The notes: generated from the sequence alone by a model not told the origin. A DNA stretch of 64,000 nucleotides from an uncultured Gammaproteobacteria bacterium (GCA_963714975.1 CAVQQD010000002.1:800001-864000), one strand, 5' to 3'. Counted from the stretch's first letter, positions 4,032 to 19,364 are shown. Program-made: numbers and translations.

Positions 4032-4760
4032 ATGGAAAAGCTTAAGTTAGTCTTGATTGCATTGCTAAGTGCTTTATGTGTTACTGCACAAGCACAGGAC
4101 GAAGAAATTTATTTAGTCCCAGTACCTCAACCTAGGGCAGTTATAGTCGTCCCATCAGCTATAGTCGCACCATCAGCTACAGTACTCCCGCTTCGAGAAC
4201 GGCAACCCATTAGGATGACCATTCAAAATGATTCTAATTTTGACATTAGCATGGTTAGTAGGGGTTATGATAATGTAAATGAGAAGGATGTGCACGCCCT
4301 AGAGGCACAAACCTTATATGCACACTCTACCCATCAATTTCTTATTGGCAGGGAGGGCTATCCAGCTCATTTATCTCTTGGATTTGCTATTTCCCCGACA
4401 GAAACGCAACGCTTGGATAGAATAATTGCGCAGTGGGAATATATTGAAGATGAAAACTTAGCAGACTCTTGCCATAATTACGGGGCGCGCACGGAACGCC
4501 AAACGACTGTTAGTTATGTGCCTGCAGAGACCTATGCTTATCCCTATGAAAATCCGTTATATCCTTACCCAGGCTATACTCCTTATTATTATTCTCCTTA
4601 TCCTAATTATGCCCCGGTTGCGACCTATGCTTATCCTCCGCCTGAGGTAGGTTACACGGCTGTTCCAGTCTACACCAACTCCACTCCCTTTTCGGTTAGG
4701 TGCTCAGGAGACAACAGTATTATCACCCCCATAGTACAGTTGGAGTTAGAGCATGTGTAA
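4032..4760 (+). CDS. Secreted hypothetical protein with a Tyr/Pro-rich tract
   Basis: Signal peptide ending in AQA; YPYENPLYPYPGYTPYYYSPYP segment; AAGGAG RBS. Confidence 0.7.
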   Translation: MEKLKLVLIALLSALCVTAQAQDEEIYLVPVPQPRAVIVVPSAIVAPSATVLPLRERQPIRMTIQNDSNFDISMVSRGYDNVNEKDVHALEAQTLYAHSTHQFLIGREGYPAHLSLGFAISPTETQRLDRIIAQWEYIEDENLADSCHNYGARTERQTTVSYVPAETYAYPYENPLYPYPGYTPYYYSPYPNYAPVATYAYPPPEVGYTAVPVYTNSTPFSVRCSGDNSIITPIVQLELEHV

Positions 4761-4872: not shown

Positions 4873-7170
4873 ATGCCGAAGAACCAGGCCAAATCCGAAC
4901 AAATTGAGGCGGCAATCAAGGAAATACTCGAGAGTGGGGGAGAGCCCACCCTTGAATCTGCACGTCAAATGCTATCCATTAAAAATCTCACTACGACTGG
5001 ACCCCGATTTTATAAATATTTATACAGCAATCATCTATACGATGGCAGATTAAAACGTTCTGCAAAAGAAGCGCTGGGCGAGAAAGAAACAAAAGAAAGA
5101 ATTGGTGAACTAGAAAAAACTCTTTCCTTGGTAAAAGCTACCTTAGAGTCGACAGCGGATGGCCTGTTAATTCTTGATCGGGATGGAAAGCTAGTAAGCT
5201 GGAACCAGAAATTTGTAGAGATGTATCGGTTTCCTCCAGAAGTTTTGGAGACACGTGATGAGCGAGTTGCACTGCAATACATTTTAGATCAATTAAGTGA
5301 CCCGCAAGGTTTTTTTAATTCTGTAGCAAAATTATACGATCATCCAGAGGCAAAAGGAGAATTAGAAGATTTACATTTTAAAGATGGTCGGATTTTTGAG
5401 CGTTATTCACAGCCACAATTAGTAGGCGAGCAAATTGTAGGGCGGGTTTGGAGTTTTCGTGATGTCACGGAGCGACGAAAACAAGAAGAGCAGCTCCGTT
5501 TGCGTGAACGTGCCATTGAGGCTAGTACCCACGGCGTCATTATTACAGACAACACCACTCATCATAATATTTTATATGCTAACCCGGCTTTTGAACGTAT
5601 TACCGGCTATTCATTTTCTGAGATAAAAGAGCACCAGTGTTTTGTATGGTGCAAGGATGATCAACAACTACCCGCGATCCAAAATATCCGTTTGGCACTC
5701 AAAGAACAGCGTGAAGATCAAGTGATTATTCTTAATCACAAGAAAAACGGCGAGGAATTTTGGAGTGAAATTAATATTGCTCCAGTGCCTGATAGTACTG
5801 GTAAAGTTAACCATTTCGTTTGGATAATCAATGATATTACTCAGCGCAAAATCATGGAGGATAAATTATCCCACCAGGCGACCCACGATTATTTAACTGA
5901 ATTACCAAATAGATTATTGCTCCGAGATCGATTACAGCAAATTATTTTGAATGCAAAGCGATTAGAAGTAATTGCTTCTGTGTGGTTTATTGATTTAGAT
6001 CGTTTTAAATTAACCAATGATAGTTTGGGTCATGGTGCAGGTGATAAATTGTTACAAGTTATTGCTGAACGTTTAGTGAACAGCGTCCGTGAAACTGATA
6101 CGGTATCTCGACTTGGCGGGGATGAGTTTGTCGTAGTTTGTTTATTACAAAAAAATGAGTTTGATGCTATTCCATTAGTTCAAAAAATCTTAAAAAAAAT
6201 TTCTGAGCCTGTGCCAATTGATGACCGTATTATTAATATTACTGCAAGTATCGGTATTAGTTCTTATCCAAGTAATGGTGAAGATATTGATACCTTAATG
6301 CGACATGCTGATATTGCCATGTATCGTGCGAAAGATTTAGGGCGTGACAATTTTCAGTTTTTTACTCCCGAGATGAATGAGCAACTAGATAAACGTTTAA
6401 TGTTAGAGAGCGATTTACATCAAGCGTTAGAACGAAGTGAATTTGTCTTGTACTATCAACCTTTAATTTGTTTAAAGACGGGAACTATCAAGAGCTTTGA
6501 AGCATTGATTCGTTGGTTTCATCCTGAGAAAGGCTTGATACCTCCCTTAGAATTTATTCCTTTTGCTGAAGAAACCGGCTTAATAGTGCCCATTGGTGAG
6601 TGGGCCTTAACAGCAGCCTGTAGAGACTATCAGCTTTTTCGGGAAAAAATATCCACACCATTGCACATAGCTGTGAATGTATCAAGTCAACAATTTCGTA
6701 GAAATAATTTTATTGAAGTTATTGATCAGATCTTATCTAAGACTAAGATGCTCGCCAGCTGCTTAGATATTGAAATCACTGAAAGTATTTTAATCGAAAA
6801 TGTTGATAAAACCATGCTTACTTTTAATGAATTAAAAACCCGAGGGATCAATCTTATTTTAGATGATTTTGGTACCGGCTATTCAAGTTTAAGCTACTTA
6901 AAGCGCTTACCATTAGATAAACTAAAAATTGATAAATCTTTTGTAGATGGAATTGGTACTCATACCAATGGACCCGCCATTGTTCAGACCATTATTTCCA
7001 TGGCTCATGTATTAGGACTCAGTGTTGTGGCAGAAGGAGTAGAAACCAAAGAGCAATTAGAATTTTTGAAAGCCCACAATTGTGATCAAATGCAAGGCTT
7101 TTACTTTAGTCGGCCACTACCCCTGCAAGAAGCACTGAAATTATTACAACCAGAAGAAGTTTTAGTGTAA
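4873..7170 (+). CDS. PAS-PAS-GGDEF-EAL c-di-GMP cyclase/phosphodiesterase
   Basis: Two PAS/PAC domains; RETD I-site five residues before an intact GGDEF; EAL, DDFGTGYSS, AEGVE and QGFYFS intact. Confidence 0.95.
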   Translation: MPKNQAKSEQIEAAIKEILESGGEPTLESARQMLSIKNLTTTGPRFYKYLYSNHLYDGRLKRSAKEALGEKETKERIGELEKTLSLVKATLESTADGLLILDRDGKLVSWNQKFVEMYRFPPEVLETRDERVALQYILDQLSDPQGFFNSVAKLYDHPEAKGELEDLHFKDGRIFERYSQPQLVGEQIVGRVWSFRDVTERRKQEEQLRLRERAIEASTHGVIITDNTTHHNILYANPAFERITGYSFSEIKEHQCFVWCKDDQQLPAIQNIRLALKEQREDQVIILNHKKNGEEFWSEINIAPVPDSTGKVNHFVWIINDITQRKIMEDKLSHQATHDYLTELPNRLLLRDRLQQIILNAKRLEVIASVWFIDLDRFKLTNDSLGHGAGDKLLQVIAERLVNSVRETDTVSRLGGDEFVVVCLLQKNEFDAIPLVQKILKKISEPVPIDDRIINITASIGISSYPSNGEDIDTLMRHADIAMYRAKDLGRDNFQFFTPEMNEQLDKRLMLESDLHQALERSEFVLYYQPLICLKTGTIKSFEALIRWFHPEKGLIPPLEFIPFAEETGLIVPIGEWALTAACRDYQLFREKISTPLHIAVNVSSQQFRRNNFIEVIDQILSKTKMLASCLDIEITESILIENVDKTMLTFNELKTRGINLILDDFGTGYSSLSYLKRLPLDKLKIDKSFVDGIGTHTNGPAIVQTIISMAHVLGLSVVAEGVETKEQLEFLKAHNCDQMQGFYFSRPLPLQEALKLLQPEEVLV

Positions 7171-7190
7171 TCTATATAGGATTTACAATT

Positions 7191-7625
7191 ATGGCAAATT
7201 CATTAATGCAGGAAGTTCAAGTAATTCCTAGAAATGAAATACCGGCTATTTATTCGGTGAATCAAACAGGCATAGAACATAGAATTGGTGAATTAAGAGA
7301 TTTTCAATGGCATCCCTTATTAAAACAATTCATTCCAGAACAACTAGGCATTTCTTTTAGTTGGACTCGATTGCGAGGGGATGAAATTTTGCAGCCTCAT
7401 TTACATCCTGAGCAGTCAATTATTATCATTGTAAAAGGAAACGGCCGATTATTAGGTCAGAAAAATCTACCATTGACTGAAGGTGATACTGTGGTGGTTC
7501 CTCCTGGTTGTGCCCACGGTTTTCAGGGTGACGGGGGGGAAGGTTTTTGTGCTTTATCCATCCAATTTGCTGGTGGTCTTTATACGCATCCAGAACAAGC
7601 ACGTGTTGCATTTGTGGAGAAATAA
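7191..7625 (+). CDS. Stand-alone cupin domain protein
   Basis: PHLHPEQS and GDTVVVPPGCAHGF cupin motifs. Confidence 0.88.
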   Translation: MANSLMQEVQVIPRNEIPAIYSVNQTGIEHRIGELRDFQWHPLLKQFIPEQLGISFSWTRLRGDEILQPHLHPEQSIIIIVKGNGRLLGQKNLPLTEGDTVVVPPGCAHGFQGDGGEGFCALSIQFAGGLYTHPEQARVAFVEK

Positions 7626-7627
7626 AT

Positions 7628-8866
7628 ATGCTGACAAGGAAATACACCGCTATTGGCGCCGTTGTTTTCGCATTATGCCCGCAATTAGTTTTGGCTAGCA
7701 ATTTTCAATTTTTTTCGGGCATTGATTATAATAACCCCGCGGATTTAACTTTTTTAGTTCAAGATACTCAAATTATTTTAGGATTCGAGTATTTTCCTCC
7801 TGCACCCCATGTCACGTTTAAAGGCAGTGTAATGGTACCCGATCCTACTGGTATGGGTAATAATGTTGTGACTACAGGTACAGCCAAAAATATTGGGAAT
7901 TCCAGCTTTCCCTATGGGCGCATTGCAAAACGACTATCTAAACAATGGGTCGCTAGTTTGGATGTGACAGAGCCTTTTAAGTCGGACATTATTTATCCTG
8001 GAGATTCAATTGTAAGATATGTGGTAACCGATTCTATCATTCATTCTGTCGATGTCGCGCCTAGTGTGGCTTATCAATTTGGAGGGGGCTTATCAAATTT
8101 GGCAGTGGGTTTTGGATTGGATGCGATGTATATGAAAATTGCCTTGAATTCGAAGTACCCCTCTTTTCCTATACCTCCTAATATACCTTTTGGTGCTGGT
8201 CCTGATGCTATTTTTACTAATGGAGCATCAAGTTGGAACTATGGTTGGCACGCAGGAGCCATTTATCATGTATCTAAATCAACCATTTTGGCCGCGAGTT
8301 ATTTTTCAGCCATAAAACAAAAATTTTCTCACGGCGAAAGTACTTTTACTGGATTCCCAGACAGCCACGATTTTGCTACGAGTCTTAATTTACCTGCCAC
8401 AAGCAATTTTAGTCTTACTCAGTTTATTGGCGAAAAAATGATTGTTTTTGCACAGGCAAGTTATTCACAGTGGCATCGTTTGCAGCAAACAATATTGTAT
8501 AATACTGCCGGCCCAGCTTCAGAAATTGTGCTCAATTTTCATTACCGAAATACCTGGCGCTATGGTTTAGCTGGGCGCTATAGTCTCACGCCTGACCTAT
8601 CTTTAGGTGGCATCATTTGTTATGACTCTACTCCTACCAATAATGCTGATAGGAATTTGGCATTACCAGGAGCTAATTTGTTTATCTTAGGTGGGTCAGC
8701 TGAATATAAATTGACTAAGGAATTAGCTCTACAATTAGAATATGGTCATGCATTTACCATTAATGTACCTCTGAATAATGTAGAGGAGGGCTCTGGCATT
8801 ACCACCGTGGGTAATGCCAGCATTTACGGTAATATATTCGGGGTGCAGTTGTCCTTTAATATCTAA
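7628..8866 (+). CDS. FadL/OmpP1/TodX-family outer-membrane transporter for hydrophobic molecules
   Basis: True start is ATG 7628 (signal peptide). NNPADL hatch motif, LNLPA, YRNTW, YDSTP..DRNLALP and a C-terminal beta-strand. Confidence 0.85.
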   Translation: MLTRKYTAIGAVVFALCPQLVLASNFQFFSGIDYNNPADLTFLVQDTQIILGFEYFPPAPHVTFKGSVMVPDPTGMGNNVVTTGTAKNIGNSSFPYGRIAKRLSKQWVASLDVTEPFKSDIIYPGDSIVRYVVTDSIIHSVDVAPSVAYQFGGGLSNLAVGFGLDAMYMKIALNSKYPSFPIPPNIPFGAGPDAIFTNGASSWNYGWHAGAIYHVSKSTILAASYFSAIKQKFSHGESTFTGFPDSHDFATSLNLPATSNFSLTQFIGEKMIVFAQASYSQWHRLQQTILYNTAGPASEIVLNFHYRNTWRYGLAGRYSLTPDLSLGGIICYDSTPTNNADRNLALPGANLFILGGSAEYKLTKELALQLEYGHAFTINVPLNNVEEGSGITTVGNASIYGNIFGVQLSFNI

Positions 8867-9003
8867 TGTGGGGGGGGGCGGCGGTGGCCATTCAGCACAG
8901 GATAGAAACAGGCATCTATGGCGCCCCATCTATGGCCTATCTTTCGTTACTTCAACCTAGGCTCATAGCTGCCTGTTTTTGCCAACTTTGGCAATAGGGT
9001 GAG

Positions 9004-10590
9004 TTACACTAAGGTTTCTGCTTTCTTTTGATTATACAAGTGCTGCAAGTATTGATATTGAGAAGGCAGTTTTTCTGCTAATTCACCTGACTTGATTTGG
9101 ATTTCTTGTATAAGTTGTTCGCCTCTTTGCATAATATCATGGCGAAAATTAAGAATAGGCATAGCAGTATGGGGTAATTGACCGACGCCACATAAAATAC
9201 ATTGGTAATTAGTGTTTGTCCAAAAGGTTTCAAATTGAGCTGCGAAAGAGCTATACAGCTCATTATCGGGTTGTGTGCTTTGTCGAATAGGGAGCCCAGC
9301 TTTTTGACGATTCAATGTTTGCTGTAAATATTCAGGCATTTTTGTTTCGTACTTATTAGCCTTCCAAAATGGTGTGTCTTCACGTTGCGCAGTTTTAAAG
9401 TGCATGATAATAAAATTTTTCACATCTTCAACCATATAGGATATTTTTTGATTAAATTTATCCCGATAGACTGGATCAATATTTTTATTGGGGAAATTTT
9501 TAATTAATTGATAGAGTGCTGCGTAAATAAAGTAAATTCCAGTAGATTCCAGAGGTTCCAAAAAGCTACTAGATAGCCCAATGCCCACGCAATTGTTTAC
9601 CCAGGCATGGCGGCGTCTACGCGATTGAAATTTAATGAAACGAATTTTTGCTTGCTCGCCGCGTTTGCCAAAAAATGCTCTCACTTCTTTTTCTGCTTCA
9701 TCGTCGCTAATAAATTGGCTGGAATAGACATAGCCATTTCCTGTACGATAAAATAACGGAATTTCCCATACCCATCCCGCCTTAAGAGCGGTTGCTGAAG
9801 TAAAAGGGCGAATACCTTTAATTTCAGCAGATTCTTCAAAATTAATCGAAATTGCACGATCGGTTAATAAGCTTTCTTCAAATGAAACTATGGGCTCATG
9901 TAGAGTTTTTTCAATTAAAAACCCATTAAACCCTGAGCAATCAATAAATAGGTCTGCAGCATATTTTTTTCCAGATTCACTTACCACGCATTTAATATTC
10001 CCTTGTTCATCTAATTCAACATGCGTCAAATTATCAGACACATAATTAATTCCATGCTTAATCGACCATTTTTGTAAAAAATTAGCTAGTAATAGTGCGT
10101 CAAAATGGTATGCATAATGCTGTACTGGCGTGCCATTTAAAAATTTAGGAGATTTATTGAGTTCCCACGCTTTAGCAGTCGAAAAGCAGGCATGGTCCAT
10201 GGGAATATTAAAATTCTCTTCTAGTCGTTTTTTAATCCATATATGAGTTAATGGCACTTCGTCAATCGTTGGAACTTCACCGAAATTATGATGATAGCTA
10301 TCACCTCCAGTTTCAGGAGGGATTTTCCAATTAATAAATTTTACTCCCAGTTTGTAAGTGGCTTGACAACTTGGCATCCATTCTTCTTCCGAAAGTCCCA
10401 AGTGATCAAAAAATTCTGTTTTTATTGTAGGGATGGTAGCTTCTCCTACACCAATTCTAGGAACAGAGGGAGACTCGATAACAGTTATATTAACTTTAAA
10501 GCCTAAAGATTTTCCGATGTAAGCAGCAGACATCCAGCCGGAGCTTCCACCACCAACAATAATAATATTCTGAATTTTTTCTTGTTCCAT
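9004..10590 (-). CDS. Flavin-dependent tryptophan halogenase (PrnA/RebH-like)
   Basis: GGGSSG, GVGEATIP, catalytic Lys in ATYKLGVKF, WVWEIP (WxWxIP), FLEPLESTGIYFIYAALYQL. Confidence 0.95.
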   Translation of the reverse strand: MEQEKIQNIIIVGGGSSGWMSAAYIGKSLGFKVNITVIESPSVPRIGVGEATIPTIKTEFFDHLGLSEEEWMPSCQATYKLGVKFINWKIPPETGGDSYHHNFGEVPTIDEVPLTHIWIKKRLEENFNIPMDHACFSTAKAWELNKSPKFLNGTPVQHYAYHFDALLLANFLQKWSIKHGINYVSDNLTHVELDEQGNIKCVVSESGKKYAADLFIDCSGFNGFLIEKTLHEPIVSFEESLLTDRAISINFEESAEIKGIRPFTSATALKAGWVWEIPLFYRTGNGYVYSSQFISDDEAEKEVRAFFGKRGEQAKIRFIKFQSRRRRHAWVNNCVGIGLSSSFLEPLESTGIYFIYAALYQLIKNFPNKNIDPVYRDKFNQKISYMVEDVKNFIIMHFKTAQREDTPFWKANKYETKMPEYLQQTLNRQKAGLPIRQSTQPDNELYSSFAAQFETFWTNTNYQCILCGVGQLPHTAMPILNFRHDIMQRGEQLIQEIQIKSGELAEKLPSQYQYLQHLYNQKKAETLV

Positions 10591-10626
10591 AAGGGGTACT
10601 CCTATTTTGATTCGAAAATAATGGCA

Positions 10627-10719
10627 CGTTGTCCCTGCACGGAAGCAGGGATCCAGTCTTCAGGATGCAAAAGCTTCACGTCCTTGTTGCCTGGATCCTG
10701 GCATCCGTGCCAGGACGAC
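10627..10719. repeat. CGTC-type palindromic repeat
   Basis: GTCCCTGCACGGAAGCAGGGATCCAG ... CTGGATCCTGGCATCCGTGCCAGGACGAC; homologous to 25923-26016. Confidence 0.8.
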
Positions 10720-11785
10720 AGCGGTGCGTTAAGACATTAATTACTCTGTTGTTTTCATTTTTGTTTCCTAAGGTAATTCTAGCCGTGTTATGAAGCTCCT
10801 CAGGGCGCCACAGTACTTTAATGTTAGCATCATTAAAGCGATCAATTATTGTATGAGCATCAGTGAATTCGATGCAGATAAAATTAGTTTCACTAGAATA
10901 AATTTTTTTAATTAATGGAGAATTTTTAATTGCGTCTATAACCCGTATTCGTTCTTGTCGTATTTGTTCAATTCCATGATGTAGAAGTTCTGGATGATTC
11001 AGTTGTTGTTGTAACATATTCTCAATTGGACCCGGCATGTTATATGGAGGCTGGACCCGTTTCAGCGTGTCTATAATTTTTTCATTAGCAATTAATGCGC
11101 CAACCCGAAGGCTTGCCATTCCTAATGCCTTAGAACAAGTTCTAAGTATAATCAAATTAGGGTATTCTAATATTTTATTTAAATAGGAAGGCTTTTTTGA
11201 AAATTCGACATAAGCCTCATCAATAATAATTAGATTTGAAAATTTATCTAAAATGTTGATTATATTTTCGGGATTAATTCGCGATCCTAATGGATTATTG
11301 GGGTCACACAGTAACAAAAGTTTTGCCTTGTGGTTAATTATTTTTGTAATGGGTAATTGTGCTCCGTCAAGTTCAAGGTCGAACAGAACGGGGTGAATTC
11401 TATATAATTGAGCCCAATGGATAAAGGCACTAAAAGTAGGTGGAGTTAGGATTACTTCGTCCAGATTGGGTTCAGCAAATGCCTTAAATACTAGGTCTAA
11501 TGCATCGACAGCACCAGTAGAAAATAAAATATTACGAAAATTAAGTGGATTATCCTTAATAGGGAGGCTTTGAGTTTTTTGATCAAGTTTCCAAATAAAA
11601 TCTAGGTAATGTTGTTTAATACTTCTTTGATGAAGATCAGGGTAATGTTTAAAGGTCCCACCGAATGCATTAGTATTATTATTTAATAGCAACTGTGCGT
11701 TGTCAAAAACTTGATTTTCAGCTAGCGGTCCGGGGAAAGATAATTTTTTAACATTTTTTCTAGAAAGTTCATGAGCATTACTCAT
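10676..11785 (-). CDS. HisC-like class I/II PLP aminotransferase (outside any his operon)
   Basis: CDPNNPLG, DEAYVEF, LRTCSKALGMASLRVG (PLP lysine), ARIT. Confidence 0.88.
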   Translation of the reverse strand: MSNAHELSRKNVKKLSFPGPLAENQVFDNAQLLLNNNTNAFGGTFKHYPDLHQRSIKQHYLDFIWKLDQKTQSLPIKDNPLNFRNILFSTGAVDALDLVFKAFAEPNLDEVILTPPTFSAFIHWAQLYRIHPVLFDLELDGAQLPITKIINHKAKLLLLCDPNNPLGSRINPENIINILDKFSNLIIIDEAYVEFSKKPSYLNKILEYPNLIILRTCSKALGMASLRVGALIANEKIIDTLKRVQPPYNMPGPIENMLQQQLNHPELLHHGIEQIRQERIRVIDAIKNSPLIKKIYSSETNFICIEFTDAHTIIDRFNDANIKVLWRPEELHNTARITLGNKNENNRVINVLTHRCRPGTDARIQATRT

Positions 11786-12728
11786 ATTTTTTCTCCTTAT
11801 CCATTAATGAGTAAACTCTTGAGGAAAAAGCGTCTACCATTTTCCAAGATTCTTCCAATACTTCATTGATACGTTTTGCTGTGTGTAAATTTTCTATTAA
11901 CAATGGTTGTTCGTCATTTAAATTTGTTTTTATTAGGTTGAATGTTGTCGGAAATTTTATGTTAGTAATTTCATAAGATTCGCAAATATTAATAAATAAG
12001 TTAGTAACAGGTTTTGTGATTAAATGATTAATGGCTATTTTTTCCATTTGATCTAAAATGAGTGTTTGATAAATGAACCATTCTGCTAGAGATTCTAAGG
12101 TCAAGTCAAAAGATTTTTCTTCTATTGTCTGTCTTGAGAGGAAAGGTTCTTGACATTTGTTAAACCAAATTTGTATAGCATTAGAAAATATTTCTCGTTT
12201 TTTTAAATTATTTAACAGTCCAGATTTAATTTTTTTAAAGAGAAGATTAGAATAAAATTGATTTATATATTTTTGGTTTTTTTTAAGTGTTTGTGTCAAA
12301 ATTAATTTTTGCTTTGAGTTTGTTTTTGCTGTTGTATAAGTATCTTGATAAAACTCATTGCCTAATTGGATGCATACACTATGCAAACCTTTTGGGCCAG
12401 CAATGAAGGAGTGAGATTGTCCAGCTGGAATTAATACTGTATCACCTTCTTTTATTTTAGTATAAGAGTTTTCTCCAATAAATTTACCACTTCCAGAAAT
12501 AAACAATAATAGATGTGGAAATAAATTTTCATGGAGCGGCATAGTATGATCGGGTTTTAAATATCCTATGTTAATGGATAATGCAGAAATAGATGGTAAA
12601 ATTTTATGTAAGGATTCGTGCCATGTCAAATCCCTAAACTGTCCTATATGGTGGATTTTTCCTTGAAGTTCTATCCATTCTACAGGTGCTATATCCATTA
12701 ACTTTAAATGAATAATTTTTTTGGTCAT
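11778..12728 (-). CDS. Cupin plus degenerate heme-oxygenase-like domain fusion
   Basis: Cupin GDTVLIPAGQSHSF. The C-terminal helical domain aligns with 12753-13460 (WFIYQTLILDQMEK vs WFCYQMFVLDNIEK) but lacks the His/Glu ligand motifs. Confidence 0.75.
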   Translation of the reverse strand: MTKKIIHLKLMDIAPVEWIELQGKIHHIGQFRDLTWHESLHKILPSISALSINIGYLKPDHTMPLHENLFPHLLLFISGSGKFIGENSYTKIKEGDTVLIPAGQSHSFIAGPKGLHSVCIQLGNEFYQDTYTTAKTNSKQKLILTQTLKKNQKYINQFYSNLLFKKIKSGLLNNLKKREIFSNAIQIWFNKCQEPFLSRQTIEEKSFDLTLESLAEWFIYQTLILDQMEKIAINHLITKPVTNLFINICESYEITNIKFPTTFNLIKTNLNDEQPLLIENLHTAKRINEVLEESWKMVDAFSSRVYSLMDKEKKYE

Positions 12729-12752
12729 GTGGAACCTCCAAAGATTACTCCA

Positions 12753-13789
12753 TTAATCTTTTTGATCAGATAAAACCGCAATACGATTCAGCATGATATT
12801 TAGCATCTCCCAGCCTTTATCGATAACCTGGTGCAATCGTCGATAAGTAAGCGCATCTTGACCCTTAAGTAATTTTTTCCCCATTTGTGCATGTTCATCA
12901 TCTCCTTCCCCGTGAATATCGAAATAATTTGAATGAACATTTTTTCCTACTTTTTCCTTAGCCCAGTTTCCATAATAAGATCCTCCTGTTTCAAGGATTA
13001 AGTGGATTAGAGCAGTTTTTTCTATATTATCTAATACAAACATTTGATAGCAAAACCAACTAGAGCTTGCATGTAAAATAGGATCTTTAATAACATGCTT
13101 GTTTTCACGATTTGCAAGTAATTCATTATGCCCAAATTCTTCTTGAAGATGTTTTAGAAATAGTGGTATGTATGTTTTGTCTTCACAAGTTGCTTCTCTA
13201 CTAAACATAATGAGCTGAAAATAATCAGAAAATACCTGGACGCAATCTAAGAATCGTTGTTTTTTAAGAGAACTTAAGTGCGTTTTGTTTTTCAGAAGAC
13301 TGAAAAATTCATTGTTCAAGGTTTTTTTTAAGCGTAATTGATTGTGCAATAATAATCCATCAAAGGTAAGCGCATATGATTTATAATTATCGACAGGTGT
13401 TTTGTTTTTTTTAAATGTTTTGAGATTAAGTTGTATTTGTATGCCTTGTAGCCCTTCCACACTAATTTTATTGAAGCCATAAGGGCATTGCTGTGGGATC
13501 AGTAGTATGTCACCAGCACAGATTTTCGGATCTTAGTGCCTATAAGATTAGCTGATCCCTGATATATATAAATCAGGGTACCTAGCGGTTCAGTTCTAAT
13601 TGCTAATTCATTATTTTTTTGGCCAAAAATCCAAGAAACATTAAATTGCTTGTTATTAGGTAATAATTTTTTAAGGATAGCATGATGATGCAGAGTTTTT
13701 ATATTTCTTATACTTGGAATTTGTTCTTGATGAATAATTTTTGATTTTTCAAGCGTTACACTAGTCATTTTTTCCATAAACAACTCCAT
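12753..13789 (-). CDS. Cupin plus heme-oxygenase-like diiron oxidase (HDO) fusion, split by a 1-bp frameshift near 13525
   Basis: ORFs 13499-13789 and 12753-13460 join if one A is added to the A-run at 13523-13526, giving KICAGDILLIPQQCPYGF. HDO-type ligands HLQEEFGH, HLILE and HGEGDDEH (HxxxDxxH). Confidence 0.8.
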
Positions 13790-13829
13790 GTGTAGTCGTA
13801 ACTACTTACGCCATAGCCAGCTCAGTTCC

Positions 13830-13870
13830 GTCGTCCCGCTCCCGCGATCAAGTCGCGGGAGCGGGACGAC
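13830..13870. repeat. Nested CGTC-type hairpin repeat
   Basis: GTCGTCCCGC-TCCCGCGA-TCAAG-TCGCGGGA-GCGGGACGAC, a perfect hairpin. Confidence 0.8.
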
Positions 13871-13877
13871 AATAATG

Positions 13878-15164
13878 CTAGTAATAAATATATTTTTTTT
13901 CTTTTTTATATAATAAATTATACAATGGTGAGGTGATCATTGTCGTAATAATTGCCATAGTAACTAATATTGTAAATAAAGCGTGAGTTATAATGTGTTG
14001 TTGGAGCCCTATGTTGAGCACTATTAGCTCCATAAGGCCTCTTGTGTTCATGAGAATTCCTATTCCTATAGAGTCACGCCAGTTTATACCGGTAATTTTA
14101 GCTGCAAACATTGTGCTTAACCCTTTTCCTAGTATAGCAGTTAATAAGACGACTGCTAAAAGGCCTAACAAATCTATTGAATTTATTAAATTGATTTGTG
14201 TGTTTAGGCCTGAAAATACGAAAAATATGGGCAGTAATAATGAATTAGTGACATGTTCGAGTTTTTGTTTTATCTTAATACTCAAATCTCTAGCTCTAGG
14301 GATAATAATCCCAGCTATAAAAGCACCAAATACCGAATATGTTCCAGCATGATCAGTAAACCAAGAGCAAATCATTAACCCTGCTAAAATTGTTCCTAAT
14401 GTTGCATTAGAGTTTAATTTAATTTTATCGAACACGGAAAAAAATTTTCCTAGAGGTTTTTTTATTAATAACATAACCACTATAAACGACGTTGTTCCGA
14501 GTATAGCTAATAATGCAATGTTTATATTGCTTTTTAGACCACTTAATAAAATGGCGAAAATAATCCATGCTAACAAGTCACCTAATGTACCAGCAGACAA
14601 GGCAATTAATCCCAGTTCGGTATGTACCGCATTTTTTTCCTCTAAAATGCGTGCTAGTATAGGCAGAGCAGTAATTGAAAGTGCAGTACCAAGAAAGATA
14701 CTTTTAGATATATCAGAAATTGATTCATTGAATAAATTAAGCTGACTAGGTAAATATAGAAATAATACTACGCCCAATAAAAATGGGATACATGTTCCTA
14801 TGCTGGCAATAAAAGCTGCTGATTTGTATTGATTTTTTAAAATTTTAATATCAAGTTCTAAACCGACCTGAAACATATATAATACAATTCCTATCTGACT
14901 TATGGAAAATAATATTGACATTGATGGATTGGGGATCGTCTTATGGTTTGCCAGCAAGTATTCTGTAGTTGGGAAAATCCAGCTATGTAAATCAGGGAAG
15001 AGTAATCCGAAGAATGAGGGTCCTAATAAAATTCCGGCGACCATTTCACATATTACATTAGTTTGTGAAAAAAATTTATTACCAATATAACTGATAGCCC
15101 TGCAAAAAAATAAAATTATAGCAAGTTGGATAAAAAGTCTTAGTATTAAATCAGAATAAGACAT
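13878..15164 (-). CDS. Cation:proton antiporter (CPA2/KefB-like, of the type found in halogenase clusters)
   Basis: EMVAGILLGPS, SITALPILARIL, FGAFIAG, LLPIFFVFSGL, LMNTRGLMELIVLNIG. Confidence 0.92.
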   Translation of the reverse strand: MSYSDLILRLFIQLAIILFFCRAISYIGNKFFSQTNVICEMVAGILLGPSFFGLLFPDLHSWIFPTTEYLLANHKTIPNPSMSILFSISQIGIVLYMFQVGLELDIKILKNQYKSAAFIASIGTCIPFLLGVVLFLYLPSQLNLFNESISDISKSIFLGTALSITALPILARILEEKNAVHTELGLIALSAGTLGDLLAWIIFAILLSGLKSNINIALLAILGTTSFIVVMLLIKKPLGKFFSVFDKIKLNSNATLGTILAGLMICSWFTDHAGTYSVFGAFIAGIIIPRARDLSIKIKQKLEHVTNSLLLPIFFVFSGLNTQINLINSIDLLGLLAVVLLTAILGKGLSTMFAAKITGINWRDSIGIGILMNTRGLMELIVLNIGLQQHIITHALFTILVTMAIITTMITSPLYNLLYKKEKKYIYY

Positions 15165-15212
15165 TGGAAGTTACCTTTAGGCCACTGTTCAAGCCATAAC
15201 CAGCTTCACCAT

Positions 15213-15260
15213 GTCGTCCCCCGCGGACAATCCCGCGATCAAGTCGTGAGAGCAGACGAC
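15213..15260. repeat. Degenerate CGTC-type repeat
   Basis: GTCGTCCCCCGCGGACAATCCCGCGATCAAGTCGTGAGAGCAGACGAC; related to 13830-13870. Confidence 0.7.
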
Positions 15261-15276
15261 GGTGTGAGTAGTTACT

Positions 15277-16707
15277 CTATATTTCAAATTTTTGGGCTTC
15301 TCTTTCATATAAGCCTTCAAAGCGAACTACATCATCATCATTTATGTAACTCCCCATTTGTATCTCTAAAATTTCAAGAACTTCTTCTGAAGTATTTTCA
15401 ATACTATGCAGCATTTTTGGTGGAATATAAGTTGATTGGTTTTCATTTAAAAATAAAATTTCATCGCCACGGGTAATTTTAGCTTGCCCAGAAATGACAA
15501 CCCAATGTTCTCCTCGGAAGCGATGCATCTGCAAAGCAATGCAACCTCTGGGCAAAATACAGACATTTCGGATTTGATAATTAGTGTTAGATTCAATTAT
15601 TTTATAATGACCCCAAATGCGAAATACTTGCTGCGACATAGTTGCCTCAGGGCGATTTTTTTTCTCTAGTATTTTTACCATATTAGCAATTTCTTGGCTT
15701 GATTCTTTATCTGCAACTAAAATTACATCAGGAGTATCTACTACTACGATATCCTTAACTCCTACCGCAGCTATTAAACGCTTATCCGACCTTAAGTAAG
15801 AGTTTTTAGAATTCAATGCAACAACATTACCAATCGTAACATTTTGATCTTTATCTTTTTGAGTAATCTTATAAAGTGACTTCCAATTTCCTATATCAAT
15901 AAATTTGGTATTTAATTTTGTGGTCACAATATTTTGTGATTTTTCCATTACTGCATAGTCTATGGATATATCAGGGGCTTTTTCAAAGTCATCTCGATTG
16001 ACAAGTAATTTTTTGTTTTGTAACGTTTGATATTTTATTGCCTCTTTACAAGCATGAAATATTTTTGGAGAATGTTTTTCAAGTTCTTCTAAAATTACCG
16101 AAGCACGAAACATGAAAATTCCAGAATTCCACGTATATTTATCTTGGGTAAGGAATTTTTTTGCTGTTTGTAAATCTGGTTTTTCAATAAAACCATTAAC
16201 ATTGAATACATCATTGTTTGAAAAAACTTCTCCAGATTCGAGGTAACCGTAGTTCATATCGGCGTGATTAGGTTTCACACCAAAAGCAACTATTTTATTT
16301 TCTGTAGCCGCTTGTTTGGTTTTTTGAATCGCTTGGACTAATTTACGTGGATTTTGAATATAATGATCGATTGGCATTACTAATAAGATAGGATCTTTGA
16401 AATACTGTTTGGCACATAAAGCTGCAAGCGTAACAGCTGCAGCACTTCCACGGGCTACAGGTTCTAGAATTAAACATGAATAATCAAAATTTAATTCACG
16501 TACTTGTAAATCAATTATATAACGTCGGTTAAAATTACAAACAATAATGGGTGCTTTGATTTCCGAAAATTCTCGCAATCGTTCCAAAGTATTTTGCAAT
16601 AAAGATTTTTCATTATATAAAGACAATAATTGCTTAGGGTGTTGTTCGCGCGACAATGGCCATAAACGTTTTCCAAAACCACCAGACAATATGACAGGAA
16701 GGATCAT
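15277..16707 (-). CDS. manC: Mannose-1-phosphate guanylyltransferase/mannose-6-phosphate isomerase
   Basis: ILSGGFGKRLWPLSR..PKQ, FIEKP, WNSGIF, ISIDYAVMEK, C-terminal cupin LQMHRFRGEHW. Confidence 0.93.
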   Translation of the reverse strand: MILPVILSGGFGKRLWPLSREQHPKQLLSLYNEKSLLQNTLERLREFSEIKAPIIVCNFNRRYIIDLQVRELNFDYSCLILEPVARGSAAAVTLAALCAKQYFKDPILLVMPIDHYIQNPRKLVQAIQKTKQAATENKIVAFGVKPNHADMNYGYLESGEVFSNNDVFNVNGFIEKPDLQTAKKFLTQDKYTWNSGIFMFRASVILEELEKHSPKIFHACKEAIKYQTLQNKKLLVNRDDFEKAPDISIDYAVMEKSQNIVTTKLNTKFIDIGNWKSLYKITQKDKDQNVTIGNVVALNSKNSYLRSDKRLIAAVGVKDIVVVDTPDVILVADKESSQEIANMVKILEKKNRPEATMSQQVFRIWGHYKIIESNTNYQIRNVCILPRGCIALQMHRFRGEHWVVISGQAKITRGDEILFLNENQSTYIPPKMLHSIENTSEEVLEILEIQMGSYINDDDVVRFEGLYEREAQKFEI

Positions 16708-16742
16708 CCATTTTACTCCTATTAATTGGCTTCTATTAGGCG

Positions 16743-18560
16743 TTATTGTAACGCCTTGCTAATACCATGCTCAGTTTTATCCCAATAATTTGGTTTAAAA
16801 AATAATTGGTATAAGGCCCTATAACTTGCAATCGACATAAATAGCCAGTAAATAGGGGCAGTTAGAGCATGAAAAATTAAATAATATTTTTTCCTACGTA
16901 AGGCAGCAATTAGATTCAGAAGTATCATAATAAATAGCCCACCAATGAAATTAAAGAGTGCAATTTTTAATACTATCGGCGGAAATATTTGTTCTACGTA
17001 TTCTTTGTTAAGAAAAAAATAGCTAATAAAAAATATCCATAGTAACACATTTGCTAAATTACTTACAAAAGTACCTCCTACGAATAACTGAAATCCAATA
17101 AAGCCTTTTGTGCCTATTGCTCGCCATAACTTAAATGGATTACGCATGTGGACAAGGTAGGTCTGCATATAACCTTTGATCCATCGAGAACGCTGTTTTA
17201 TCCAATTATAGAGCTTGGTATTTGCTTCTTCATAGGTGGTTGACGGCATCACTTTTTCTTTATAGCCGAGACGATTAAGACGAATACCAATATCAGCATC
17301 TTCAGATACGTTGTAAGGGTCCCAAGCACGGATTTTTTTTAAACATTCAGTTTTAAAATGGTTGCTAGTACCCCCTAGAGGAATGGGCGCCCCAACATAT
17401 TCTAAAGCTGGAAGCATATAATCAAACCAATAAGAGTACTCGAGAGTGAACATTTTAGTTAACCAATTATCATTTGAATTGTAAAAATTTAAGCAGCATT
17501 GCACGCAGGCTAATTTTTGTTCATTCTCTCCATGGAATACGGCAAGAGCTTTTTTTAATTGCAAAGGATCTGGCTTATCTTCCGCGTCATAAATTGTCAG
17601 ATATTCGCCGCGTGCAAATTTTAAACCATAATTACAGGCCTTTGCTTTAGTCCGTGGAAGTTTATTTGGTATGTAAATGAATTCATAACATCCTGAAATG
17701 TGGAGATTTTTTAATATCTCAATTGTCTCAGTATCGTCGGACTCTAAAAGTATTTTAATATCAAGTTTGTGTTTTGGATAATCTAAATTGTTTAAATTAT
17801 TAATTAAAGCTTTTAAAATTACTTCTTTTTCTTGGTAAAGGGGGATTAAAACAGTATAAATGGGGAGGTTTTTAAGGTTAGCTTCTACTTGAGTAATGTC
17901 GATTTTGCGTGACAAAAACATCCCAATTAATGTTAACAAAAATTTGTAGATTAAAATACCAAACAAAATGAACGACAGAACTAGGTTGAATACGAGTAAA
18001 GTTCGCAGTGGATTAATACTCAAACAACTTACCAGGAAAATAAAAAAAATTGCTAGAAAAATTTTATGCCAGGTGCAAAAGGTTTTTTTGGCACTAAGAG
18101 ATTGATTACTTGTGTTTAATTCTGATATGGATTCCTCGATATAAGTTTCATCAAATACTTTTTGTAATGTCCATAAGATGTCAAATTTAGACGTGCATAC
18201 AATTTCTGCATTTCCACCCCATTCGGCATGAATAAGCTCAAAAGTTTCATCGCTAGGATTGGCTGTGGCAACTACTATTTGATGACCAGTTTGCTTAATA
18301 GGCAATACTAATTGAGAAAAATACATATTCCGTTGCTTAGACAATAGCAAATTTTGATCAATCTCAGTGTGGATTAGGTCAACAAATTTTAGTTGAAAGT
18401 GAGAGGCGATCGCTTGGTAATAGTCTAATGATCGCAGATTTTTTATTGAAAATAAAATATCTCCTAATTTTCCTCCAATTTTTTTTTGCGTTTCCAAGGC
18501 CAATTCAATTTCATCATTGCTTGCGAGTCCCTTTTTTACAAATATCTCACCAAGTTTCAT
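16743..18560 (-). CDS. Processive GT2 glycosyltransferase with an N-terminal MshEN-type c-di-GMP-binding domain
   Basis: N-terminus KLGEIFVKKGL..ALETQKKIGGKLGDIL (tandem MshEN motif); YDAED, SEDAD and QRSRW; several TM helices. Confidence 0.88.
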   Translation of the reverse strand: MKLGEIFVKKGLASNDEIELALETQKKIGGKLGDILFSIKNLRSLDYYQAIASHFQLKFVDLIHTEIDQNLLLSKQRNMYFSQLVLPIKQTGHQIVVATANPSDETFELIHAEWGGNAEIVCTSKFDILWTLQKVFDETYIEESISELNTSNQSLSAKKTFCTWHKIFLAIFFIFLVSCLSINPLRTLLVFNLVLSFILFGILIYKFLLTLIGMFLSRKIDITQVEANLKNLPIYTVLIPLYQEKEVILKALINNLNNLDYPKHKLDIKILLESDDTETIEILKNLHISGCYEFIYIPNKLPRTKAKACNYGLKFARGEYLTIYDAEDKPDPLQLKKALAVFHGENEQKLACVQCCLNFYNSNDNWLTKMFTLEYSYWFDYMLPALEYVGAPIPLGGTSNHFKTECLKKIRAWDPYNVSEDADIGIRLNRLGYKEKVMPSTTYEEANTKLYNWIKQRSRWIKGYMQTYLVHMRNPFKLWRAIGTKGFIGFQLFVGGTFVSNLANVLLWIFFISYFFLNKEYVEQIFPPIVLKIALFNFIGGLFIMILLNLIAALRRKKYYLIFHALTAPIYWLFMSIASYRALYQLFFKPNYWDKTEHGISKALQ

Positions 18561-18569
18561 TACATTCTC

Positions 18570-19364
18570 CTAAAAAGTGAACCAGGCAGCTAAAAATGGT
18601 GCAGTTCCTACTCCTAAATTTCTAGCATAGATATCTTGTGAGATACCTGCTTGCAGGGCAAAAGGTTTTTTTACCCAATAGACTAAGCTCGGAACAAGTG
18701 TAAATTGATCGTAATTTGTGCCTTTTGGCTGGGTTGGATTAACTAGGCTTAAAGTATTATAACTTTGTAGAAATACCCAAAGCTTTTGATCAAACAGCTT
18801 TATTCCAGCTTCCAAGTTGATTTGTGCTTGATCGCCTGCGCCATAGCGTTGAATGATGCCATTCGAGGTATCGAAAAACCAATAGACGGATGATTTTTTT
18901 CCAAAACTTCCTCCAGTCCCGTACAGAATAGCCTCTCCGGTATTCACGTGAGTGTTTTGTGGTGGAATATTTGCTGAAGCAGCCTTGCCAAAGAAATCGG
19001 CAAATGTTTGTGCGGAGATCACGCTATTTTTGCCACGCCAAATTTGATAGCGTGCCAGTATTTCATTGTCATTGGATCCTGTGATACCCGGAGGAGTTGC
19101 TGGATGGGTAGAGATGCCGGAGAAATAGGCGCCCAGAGTTAAATTAGTATTTACGCCAAATTCAAAATATTGGTCTACTTCATACTTGGCAAAACGCGGA
19201 GCACTGGTTAGCGTGCCATTACTAGTGCGAAAATGGGTGCTGACATAATGTTTAATAACGGAAATACTCAAACCCTGGCCAGGATCTTGAACCCAAGCAC
19301 CTGCAGATGCATCTTGCATAAAAAAAAATAGCAGTAATATAAATGCTAAAATTTTACTAAACAT
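18570..19364 (-). CDS. Putative outer-membrane beta-barrel protein
   Basis: Signal peptide (ASA), mature N-terminus GAWVQDPGQG, amphipathic strands, aromatic C-terminus AAWFTF. Confidence 0.7.
   Translation of the reverse strand: MFSKILAFILLLFFFMQDASAGAWVQDPGQGLSISVIKHYVSTHFRTSNGTLTSAPRFAKYEVDQYFEFGVNTNLTLGAYFSGISTHPATPPGITGSNDNEILARYQIWRGKNSVISAQTFADFFGKAASANIPPQNTHVNTGEAILYGTGGSFGKKSSVYWFFDTSNGIIQRYGAGDQAQINLEAGIKLFDQKLWVFLQSYNTLSLVNPTQPKGTNYDQFTLVPSLVYWVKKPFALQAGISQDIYARNLGVGTAPFLAAWFTF

Follow-up and report, generated by a model that had tools for sequence, protein, structure and literature searches.

The locus analysed here, from an uncultured Gammaproteobacteria bacterium, brings together an enzyme of cyclic di-GMP (c-di-GMP) turnover, a small biosynthetic operon with a tryptophan halogenase and two paralogues that join a cupin to a heme-oxygenase-like diiron oxidase (HDO) domain, and a polysaccharide module. 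It spans positions 4873–19364 (14.5 kb) of the window, the whole 64,000-nucleotide stretch under analysis (GCA_963714975.1, CAVQQD010000002.1:800001-864000). Listing of open reading frames (ORFs) and Pfam and NCBIfam scans resolve it into three juxtaposed units. We favour, with a probability of roughly 0.55, the explanation that units 1 and 2 are one conserved association between the HDO family and c-di-GMP, and that unit 3 is an independent XagB-type module. Homologues of the c-di-GMP enzyme recur beside members of this HDO family elsewhere, in changing gene orders, and homologues of the unit 3 proteins were found at none of the cupin-HDO loci sampled. A preliminary description of the DNA had taken the same genes for a single self-contained circuit of signal synthesis, sensing and polysaccharide output; our ORF, Pfam and NCBIfam results place all of its genes at the positions it gave, with the corrections set out below. 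The features are as follows.

Unit 1, 4873–8866, plus strand: operon-like trio of PAS-PAS-GGDEF-EAL protein, lone cupin and FadL channel.
4873–7170, plus strand: PAS(PAS_7)-PAS(LOV-like PAS_9)-GGDEF-EAL protein, 765 residues (Pfam).
7191–7625, plus strand: stand-alone cupin of 144 residues (cupin144) with HxHxE and PxGxxH metal motifs (Pfam).
7628–8866, plus strand: FadL/TodX-family outer-membrane channel (Pfam Toluene_X, E = 4.8e-32).
Unit 2, 9004–13789, minus strand: small biosynthetic operon of halogenase, HisC-type aminotransferase and cupin-HDO proteins A and B.
9004–10590, minus strand: flavin-dependent tryptophan halogenase of the PrnA/RebH/ThaL type, 528 residues (Pfam, E = 2e-150).
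10676–11785, minus strand: HisC-family class I/II aminotransferase dependent on pyridoxal phosphate, 369 residues (Pfam; HisC match in the PDB).
11778–12728, minus strand: cupin-HDO paralogue A, 316 residues (A316), cupin (HxN...H) plus helical HDO-fold domain.
12753–13532, minus strand, open frame: C-terminal part of cupin-HDO paralogue B (HDO domain with EFGH and DDEH); the listed ORF has 235 residues from a GTG at 13460.
13499–13789, minus strand, other frame: N-terminal part of paralogue B, a degenerate cupin without His ligands (ORFs and alignment).
13830–13870, no strand: perfect GC-rich palindrome with 18-nt arms and a 5-nt loop, between the antiporter gene and gene B.
Unit 3, 13878–19364, minus strand: XagB-type polysaccharide module of ManC, MshEN-GT2 synthase and barrel candidate; a CPA2 antiporter gene lies within these bounds.
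13878–15164, minus strand: CPA2 cation/proton antiporter, 428 residues (Pfam Na_H_Exchanger, E = 8.6e-57).
15277–16707, minus strand: ManC, bifunctional mannose-1-phosphate guanylyltransferase/mannose-6-phosphate isomerase (TIGR01479).
16743–18560, minus strand: XagB-family membrane synthase of glycosyltransferase family 2 (GT2) with an N-terminal MshEN-like domain, 605 residues (Pfam MshEN, E = 8.9e-9, plus GT2).
18570–19364, minus strand: small putative outer-membrane beta-barrel, 264 residues, whose start resembles a signal peptide; its gene immediately precedes that of the synthase.

As far as a full-text literature search shows, the cupin-HDO family is uncharacterised. Its size was estimated with a HMMER search, using a three-sequence profile, of 1.84 billion representatives: 318 match at E ≤ 0.001, 233 at 1e-10 and 97 at 1e-30, most of them 330–375 residues long. 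A word-index search with A316 had understated the family, returning only the query and one other protein, P0002. Fused members of 500–525 residues, considered as aminotransferase fusions, carry an extra cupin instead. For the neighbourhoods, loci were collected with one conserved peptide pattern (22 species-genome and 19 metagenome loci; 39 distinct after two duplicates), and neighbours were counted by tblastn at E ≤ 1e-10 with the window proteins and proteins of loci L007 and L012. Since many of the 39 contigs are short, a missing gene carries little weight. The Pfam scans covered part of the ORFs: 66 from L005, L007 and L011 (all picked ORFs) and from L010 and L026 (part), with L009 left out; 61 of the 113 picked ORFs in another set of loci; and 39 of 63 in a further one. 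The following genes were counted near the HDO match.

IlvE-type class IV aminotransferase: 20 of 39 loci.
O-methyltransferase: 12 of 39.
P450: 10 of 39.
Full-length PAS-GGDEF-EAL protein: 5 of 39 (L005, L039, L007, L011, L045).
EAL match only: 1 of 39 (L044, REC-EAL by Pfam).
Halogenase: 5 of 39 (L005, L039, L010, L044, L048).
HisC-type aminotransferase: 3 of 39 (L009, L010, L013).
Acyl-CoA synthetase: 3 of 39.
FadL: 3 of 39 (L005, L039, L007).
XagB, ManC, barrel or antiporter: 0 of 39.

The five PAS-GGDEF-EAL homologues beside HDO genes are 35–57% identical to the window protein over 503–781 residues, and a FadL gene accompanies them in three of the five loci (L005 and L039, where the channel is 55% identical to that of the window, and L007, where it is recognised by Pfam). 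The position of the c-di-GMP gene varies: it converges on the cupin-HDO gene in L007, follows the HDO genes directly on the same strand in L011 and L045, directly precedes a stand-alone HDO gene in L005 and L039, and stands upstream of the cupin gene in the window. The flanks vary too, with glutathione synthesis genes at L007, type IV pilus genes at L011 and L045, and glutathione S-transferase and helicase genes at L005. The linked gene encodes the sole EAL domain found in the present genome (G000), one of two EAL matches in the genome of L005 and one of three in that of L007. Because adjacency is kept through rearrangement and relocation, in genomes with few such genes, the gene order argues for a functional tie between the HDO family and the PAS-GGDEF-EAL gene. 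The co-occurrence that the preliminary description had proposed to look for is seen at some of the 39 loci for PAS-GGDEF-EAL, FadL and halogenase genes, and at none of them for the MshEN-GT2 synthase. No publication pairing heme oxygenase-like with GGDEF was found in the full-text literature search.

Across phyla (Mycobacterium, Myxococcota, actinomycete metagenome-assembled genomes (MAGs)), the layout is a B-type cupin-HDO, a class IV aminotransferase, a cupin-HDO, a P450 and an O-methyltransferase. In the MAG and metagenome loci with a c-di-GMP gene it is FadL, acyl-CoA synthetase, stand-alone HDO, IlvE-type aminotransferase (exceeding the IlvE cut-offs), cupin-HDO and PAS-GGDEF-EAL. At L005 (17929–20227) the PAS-GGDEF-EAL gene of the MAG is split into two ORFs, for which a frameshift or misassembly is the probable cause; the near-identical layout of L039 has one ORF of 752 residues. 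At L011 (4342–12378) and L045 (92–8781) the HDO/PAS-GGDEF-EAL cluster directly adjoins the type IV pilus genes, which in L011 include an MshEN-bearing PilB ATPase and a PilZ protein, so that c-di-GMP receptors of another kind adjoin the same module.

The PAS-GGDEF-EAL protein of the window matches EAL (E = 1.1e-73), GGDEF (2e-44), PAS_9 (6e-23) and PAS_7 (3e-10), and it contains the RxxD-5-GGDEF arrangement (I-site and GGDEF) together with EAL.R, VNVS, EITE, DDFGTG, KID and EGVE. With this full set of motifs both catalytic domains look intact, as the preliminary description had noted, and both activities are predicted. The second PAS domain (residues 212–336; window 5506–5880) matches the light-oxygen-voltage (LOV) model of the YtvA family with E = 5e-25 and keeps the Cys. 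By eye, the flavin-binding residues flanking this Cys (QCFVWC context) are replaced, and on this ground we rejected a true LOV flavin sensor despite the YtvA-family match. The domain is LOV-derived and probably has a ligand other than flavin.

Cupin144 matches A316 with E = 2.8e-12 and 28% identity, which bears out the paralogy noted earlier between the two strands, and its identity to the N-terminal cupin of many full-length family members is 45–54%; it has the look of a cupin-HDO protein minus its HDO half. A search of 5.8 billion clusters turned up a single further short relative. The true start of the FadL gene is the ATG at 7628, 2 nt past the cupin stop and preceded by GGAG, and not the TTG at 7547. 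The protein scores 111.4 bits against the Toluene_X cut-off of 29.7 and, read from 7628, has an N-terminus that appears signal-peptide-like by eye; the FadL equivalog model NF007988 stays below its cut-off (41 bits vs 585). Members of the FadL family are known mainly as uptake channels.

The genome (G000; 2.56 Mb, 93.75% complete) has a small c-di-GMP network: three GGDEF, one EAL and two MshEN domains, with no PilZ and no HD_5 match in the census. The other GGDEF genes encode a 462-residue PAS-GGDEF protein and a 198-residue GGDEF protein, both about 15 kb beyond the window. Both MshEN domains sit on GT2 proteins, the window synthase and a 615-residue protein on contig 1 (145076–146923; L059:76-1923) with a C-terminal MshEN in an NfrB-like arrangement. 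If c-di-GMP acts at all, the sole recognisable phosphodiesterase must affect the sole recognisable receptors, and coupling of enzyme and synthase in this genome is plausible on this predicted inventory. The two further GGDEF genes and the second MshEN-glycosyltransferase speak against a circuit contained within the locus.

In unit 2, the two cupin-HDO paralogues have lost complementary parts. A316 lacks a segment of about 30 residues bearing the ExxH motif and has also lost DxxH (alignments). Gene B is interrupted: intact B orthologues of 346 residues in L005 and L039 align to both of its frames, with the switch between residues ~86 and 94, which places a frameshift near 13520–13532, at a run of four A. 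The C-terminal part is 48–51% identical to the intact L039 and L005 proteins. Either a genuine mutation or misassembly at the homopolymer could explain the frameshift; as assembled, it means that the pathway may be impaired. Of the two cupin-HDO fusions described earlier, A is thus a single ORF without diiron motifs and B is split across two frames, and an intact pathway is not supported.

The pattern of loss recurs in relatives. A316, P0002 and the A proteins of L005 and L039 (L005_A, L039_A) are without the ExxH segment and keep the cupin, and the B proteins that precede A keep the HDO motifs and have lost the cupin His residues. We take ExxH and D/ExxH to be the HDO metal ligands. A metagenomic protein of 683 residues (P0123) is a natural single-chain fusion of B followed by A, in the order of the window genes; the N half, with ExxH retained, shares 50% identity with L039_B over 343 residues, and the C half combines a full cupin with the deletion typical of A. 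This complementary loss and the fusion, a Rosetta-stone pattern, indicate that A and B may act as one complex, and suggest a single two-site oxidase split over two chains.

The HDO assignment was examined with AlphaFold2 models. The A316 model has a mean confidence (pLDDT) of 85.5 and a cupin match with Z = 14.7; aligned with VIA-align, residues 137–315 match AetD (8twn) with Z = 11.5 over 168 residues (root-mean-square deviation 3.7) and HamA with Z = 10.7. For the C-terminal part of B (pLDDT 82.3), the top Foldseek matches are UndA, CADD, TenA, PqqC and AetD, with E from 1e-4 to 1e-2 and TM about 0.6 (0.60–0.64 for AetD); UndA ranks first at 13% identity. Foldseek with the whole A316 model returned cupins only, sequence comparison of A316 and the B C-terminal part with PDB chains gave nothing useful, and a 35-sequence family profile matched cupins only. 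Relatives do exceed the cut-off of the HDO model PF14518 (L018, 31.0 bits; P0139, 35.7 bits). Taking the moderate fold scores together with the motifs and the family's Pfam matches, we consider the assignment of the helical domain to the HDO fold sound. A further HDO paralogue of 251 residues (PF14518, E = 4.8e-5) is encoded elsewhere in this genome, on contig 3 (L060:6777-8419), beside an MFS transporter gene; the adjacent styrene-monooxygenase-like gene appears split into ORFs of 118 and 222 residues, and the arrangement resembles the Pseudomonas loci L018 and L021.

The remaining genes of unit 2 point to tryptophan chemistry. The halogenase scores 502 bits with PF04820, 525 bits with PrnA over residues 5–519, and about 499 bits with ThaL and RebH, and it groups with the 7/6-halogenases of free tryptophan and not with the divergent indole halogenases (~255 bits). 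In the PrnA alignment and the translation it keeps the equivalents of K79 and E346, most substrate-pocket residues, GxGxxG and WxWxIP; we assume for Lys79, Glu346 and the pocket residues the roles they have in PrnA. The earlier tryptophan and halogen reading is thus supported. Homologues in L005 and L039 are 72% identical. The aminotransferase scores 227 bits with TIGR01141, under the cut-off of 276.55, and its reading frame opens with an ATG inside the end of gene A, giving an 8-nt overlap. A cyanobacterial locus (L010) has the same order of cupin-HDO, HisC-type aminotransferase and halogenase; tryptophan synthase genes adjoin L008, and L024 contains an aromatic amino acid hydroxylase. AetD and SktA, according to the available passages of two accounts, are single-domain HDOs that transform bromotryptophans supplied by halogenases encoded next to them (PMC11869266, PMC13108848). 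Together with the SznF precedent described below, these observations make a halotryptophan-derived product the best guess; its structure cannot be inferred.

In unit 3, ManC scores 557.7 bits against the TIGR01479 cut-off of 372.95. The synthase exceeds the Pfam MshEN cut-off (35.7 bits vs 23.1), and a relaxed form of the published 24-residue MshEN motif matches its residues 2–25; among the 120 homologues listed, 71 have at least one match to this motif and 13 have two. MshEN domains bind c-di-GMP and have tandem 24-residue motifs with a 5-residue spacer (PMC5013675), so that the binding cited as known fact in the preliminary description is in print. Homologues of the synthase are numerous (at least 7967 at E ≤ 0.001, of 8000 scored candidates); those named 'glycosyltransferase XagB' by JGI are about 45–51% identical, and Xanthomonas proteins 44–45%. 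The 264-residue barrel candidate has no Pfam match; its Atlas neighbours are 'Transporter' clusters, one of which has PF13557 on 34% of its members with a score of 0.98. In one genome of the class (G128), a homologue 25% identical to this barrel lies directly upstream of a XagB homologue.

XagB homologues are patchily distributed: one of 60 relatives has one, as do seven of 399 other sampled genomes of the class, one of these in a short open frame. In five of the six class genomes with a full-length XagB (loci L038 and L067–L070; genomes G055, G263, G293, G285 and G357) the operon reads BcsB-like protein, XagB, a 514-residue protein, GH113, a 281-residue protein and, last, a CotH kinase-like protein. 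The sixth, G128, has the barrel-then-synthase form of the window. None of the five common partner proteins (BcsB-like, 514-residue, GH113, 281-residue, CotH) was matched when searched for in the window. GH113 is a mannanase family, and ManC in the window and GH113 in the XagB operons together point to a mannose polymer. The zero count of XagB at the 39 cupin-HDO loci and the failure to find it in the genomes of three linked loci place the polysaccharide module outside the conserved association, and membership of XagB, ManC and the barrel in one evolved unit with the biosynthetic genes is not supported. The antiporter, once listed among the latter, likewise has no homologue at those loci, and on this ground we rejected it as the exporter of the pathway; nothing observed here ties it to the unit on either side.

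The order of transcription on the minus strand is 264-residue protein, synthase, ManC, antiporter, palindrome, B, A, aminotransferase and halogenase; the palindrome and a 112-nt gap set the polysaccharide and antiporter genes off from the biosynthetic genes, giving three units where two convergent blocks had been described. The palindrome arms gave two matches against none expected in shuffles and are single-copy within the window, in an AT-rich intergenic gap. A scan for promoters and terminators stayed at shuffle level (63 promoter-like matches vs 56.6 expected, 6 terminator-like vs 11.1). The two minus-strand units have GC contents of 34.0% and 34.4%, compared with 40.8% for the window, and no cupin-HDO gene was found in the genomes of 60 relatives. 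Horizontal acquisition of these units fits this composition and distribution. The locus is flanked in the window by transsulfuration and RecQ genes; an ORF of 242 residues (4032–4760), without Pfam or NCBIfam match, lies between a cystathionine gamma-lyase-type gene and the PAS-GGDEF-EAL gene.

Parts of the locus resemble known systems. In Pseudomonas, undA is reported as always associated with rbdA (available text of PMC10614000, citing Rui 2014), so the precedent invoked in the preliminary description is in print. There too, an HDO-fold oxidase gene, that of a fatty-acid decarboxylase, lies beside a PAS-GGDEF-EAL gene; here the HDO belongs to a distinct sequence family, is fused to or paired with cupins, and is accompanied by a tryptophan halogenase and aminotransferases. 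In both cases the link is one of gene adjacency, and the publications listed by the literature search name 1-undecene and c-di-GMP together only in passing. AetD and SktA share with the window a small cluster of tryptophan halogenase and HDO-fold enzyme, and AetD is the best match of the A316 helical domain, but they are single-domain HDOs, whereas the window family has an N-terminal cupin, paralogue pairs and an aminotransferase. The available passages of the AetD and SktA accounts (PMC11869266, PMC13108848) mention no c-di-GMP gene.

Among characterised HDOs, according to the available passages of a 2026 review, SznF alone carries a cupin, at its C-terminus (PMC13108848). In this N-nitrosating enzyme of streptozotocin synthesis, a diiron HDO site and the metal site of the cupin act one after the other on the same amino acid. 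It has a central HDO followed by the cupin in one chain, whereas in the window family the cupin is N-terminal and the sites are apparently split between paralogues; SznF is not among the fold matches listed for A316 and the B C-terminal part. For unit 3, the counterpart is xagABCD of Xanthomonas, a biofilm polysaccharide operon that is de-repressed on loss of the c-di-GMP phosphodiesterase RpfG (PMC3609779, available text, which does not state that XagB binds c-di-GMP). The synthases correspond in being GT2 proteins with MshEN, at the identity given above, but besides its synthase the window module has only the small barrel and ManC. In NfrB-type glycosyltransferases the MshEN domain is C-terminal, whereas it is N-terminal in the window synthase.

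In the favoured explanation, the halogenase would provide halotryptophan and the HisC-type aminotransferase would interconvert amino and keto acids. B would supply the diiron site and A the cupin metal site of one two-site oxidase, which may oxidatively remodel the side chain, by analogy with AetD and SktA acting on bromotryptophan and with SznF and its HDO and cupin. The HDO-family genes and the PAS-GGDEF-EAL gene would move together through different genomic contexts, and, most likely, the balance between making and degrading c-di-GMP would depend on a small hydrophobic compound, either formed or consumed by the oxidases, which may be the PAS ligand and the FadL cargo. Unit 3, with its own barrel, MshEN-GT2 synthase and GDP-mannose supply, would adjoin units 1 and 2 only in this genome. 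It is still a likely target of c-di-GMP, which may activate XagB, because the genome has a single EAL domain and two MshEN-glycosyltransferases as its only recognisable receptors.

Several points weigh against the favoured explanation. All five linked loci are MAG or metagenome contigs, three titled proteobacterial (two of these gammaproteobacterial) and two untitled, and they may stem from one broad lineage, in which case shared descent inflates the count; 33 of the 39 loci, many on short contigs, show no c-di-GMP gene. The companions of the link elsewhere, acyl-CoA synthetase, IlvE-type aminotransferase and stand-alone HDO, were not found in the window. Besides its frameshift, B carries Gly in place of a His that the family conserves, and the A316 cupin carries HxN where the family has HxH. 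The matches of the helical domains (Z = 11.5; Foldseek E = 1e-4) are in a range possibly generic for helical bundles, and no window protein reaches the PF14518 cut-off of 28.9 bits (B C-terminal part 15.0 bits, E = 0.023; A316 no match). For the synthase, the second MshEN half-motif fits only partly by eye, and the NF053729 score falls just short of its cut-off (36.3 vs 38 bits). The genomes of L005, L007 and L011, which carry the HDO link, yielded no XagB homologue when searched.

Another reading takes the biosynthetic operon to be no longer functional in this organism, which would then make use of the c-di-GMP enzyme and the polysaccharide genes alone. This decaying remnant, possible though doubtful, would account for the frameshift and the lost His in B, for the resemblance of cupin144 to a truncated cupin-HDO protein, and for the missing synthetase, IlvE-type aminotransferase and stand-alone HDO. 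But the A4 run could have misled the assembly, the halogenase, aminotransferase and A genes are intact and translationally coupled, and the 235-residue B ORF still encodes a whole HDO domain, of the size of relatives' stand-alone HDOs. The channel and the fatty-acid precedent suggest another reading, improbable in our view, in which FadL imports an exogenous hydrophobic acid or aromatic, the HDO and cupin enzymes transform it, joined in relatives by an acyl-CoA synthetase and an IlvE-type aminotransferase, and the PAS-GGDEF-EAL protein reports its presence. The core of L005, L039 and L007 (FadL, acyl-CoA synthetase, stand-alone HDO and IlvE-type aminotransferase) is reminiscent of uptake and activation by FadL and FadD, and the fatty-acid enzyme UndA is the top Foldseek match of the B HDO domain; a PrnA-type halogenase and the P450 and O-methyltransferase tailoring genes of relatives point instead to biosynthesis, and the synthetase and IlvE-type gene are absent from the window locus.

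The two remaining readings lie at opposite ends, and we regard each as very unlikely. At one end, three functionally unrelated neighbours would share a low-GC, horizontally acquired stretch; the GC values and the absence of cupin-HDO from the 60 relatives, with XagB in one, agree with this, but the repeated adjacency of HDO and PAS-GGDEF-EAL genes in different orders and contexts does not. At the other lies the closed circuit of the preliminary description, one co-evolved unit in which a halogenated indole signal passes through FadL, is sensed by PAS and switches the adjacent polysaccharide by c-di-GMP. In its favour, a stretch of 14.5 kb holds every part, HDO genes keep their link to PAS-GGDEF-EAL and FadL in other loci, and in the minimal c-di-GMP network the MshEN-GT2 proteins are the only recognisable receptors. 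Set against this are the distribution of XagB, ManC and the barrel, the c-di-GMP genes elsewhere in the genome, the frameshift in B, and the main use of FadL proteins as uptake channels. The locus as a demonstrated closed circuit is not supported; the tie of a small molecule to c-di-GMP and the tryptophan halogenation were right, so that the interpretation as a whole is partly supported. A bolder version of the favoured explanation, that the cupin-HDO pair makes a (halo)tryptophan-derived dedicated ligand of the co-inherited PAS-GGDEF-EAL enzyme, a c-di-GMP-coupled autoinducer of genome-reduced proteobacteria that here feeds into MshEN-type synthases, seems to us unlikely as it stands.

What is most interesting in the locus is an uncharacterised cupin-HDO family with complementary paralogues that is repeatedly paired with a PAS-GGDEF-EAL enzyme. 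To our knowledge, very few enzymes of the latter kind have a known ligand, and a biosynthetic cluster that accompanies one from locus to locus would point to a candidate ligand and to a way of producing it. The complementary loss of sites and the natural fusion offer a clear hypothesis for new oxidative tryptophan chemistry. In the present organism, the tiny c-di-GMP network, with one EAL domain and no PilZ, would make cause and effect unusually traceable.

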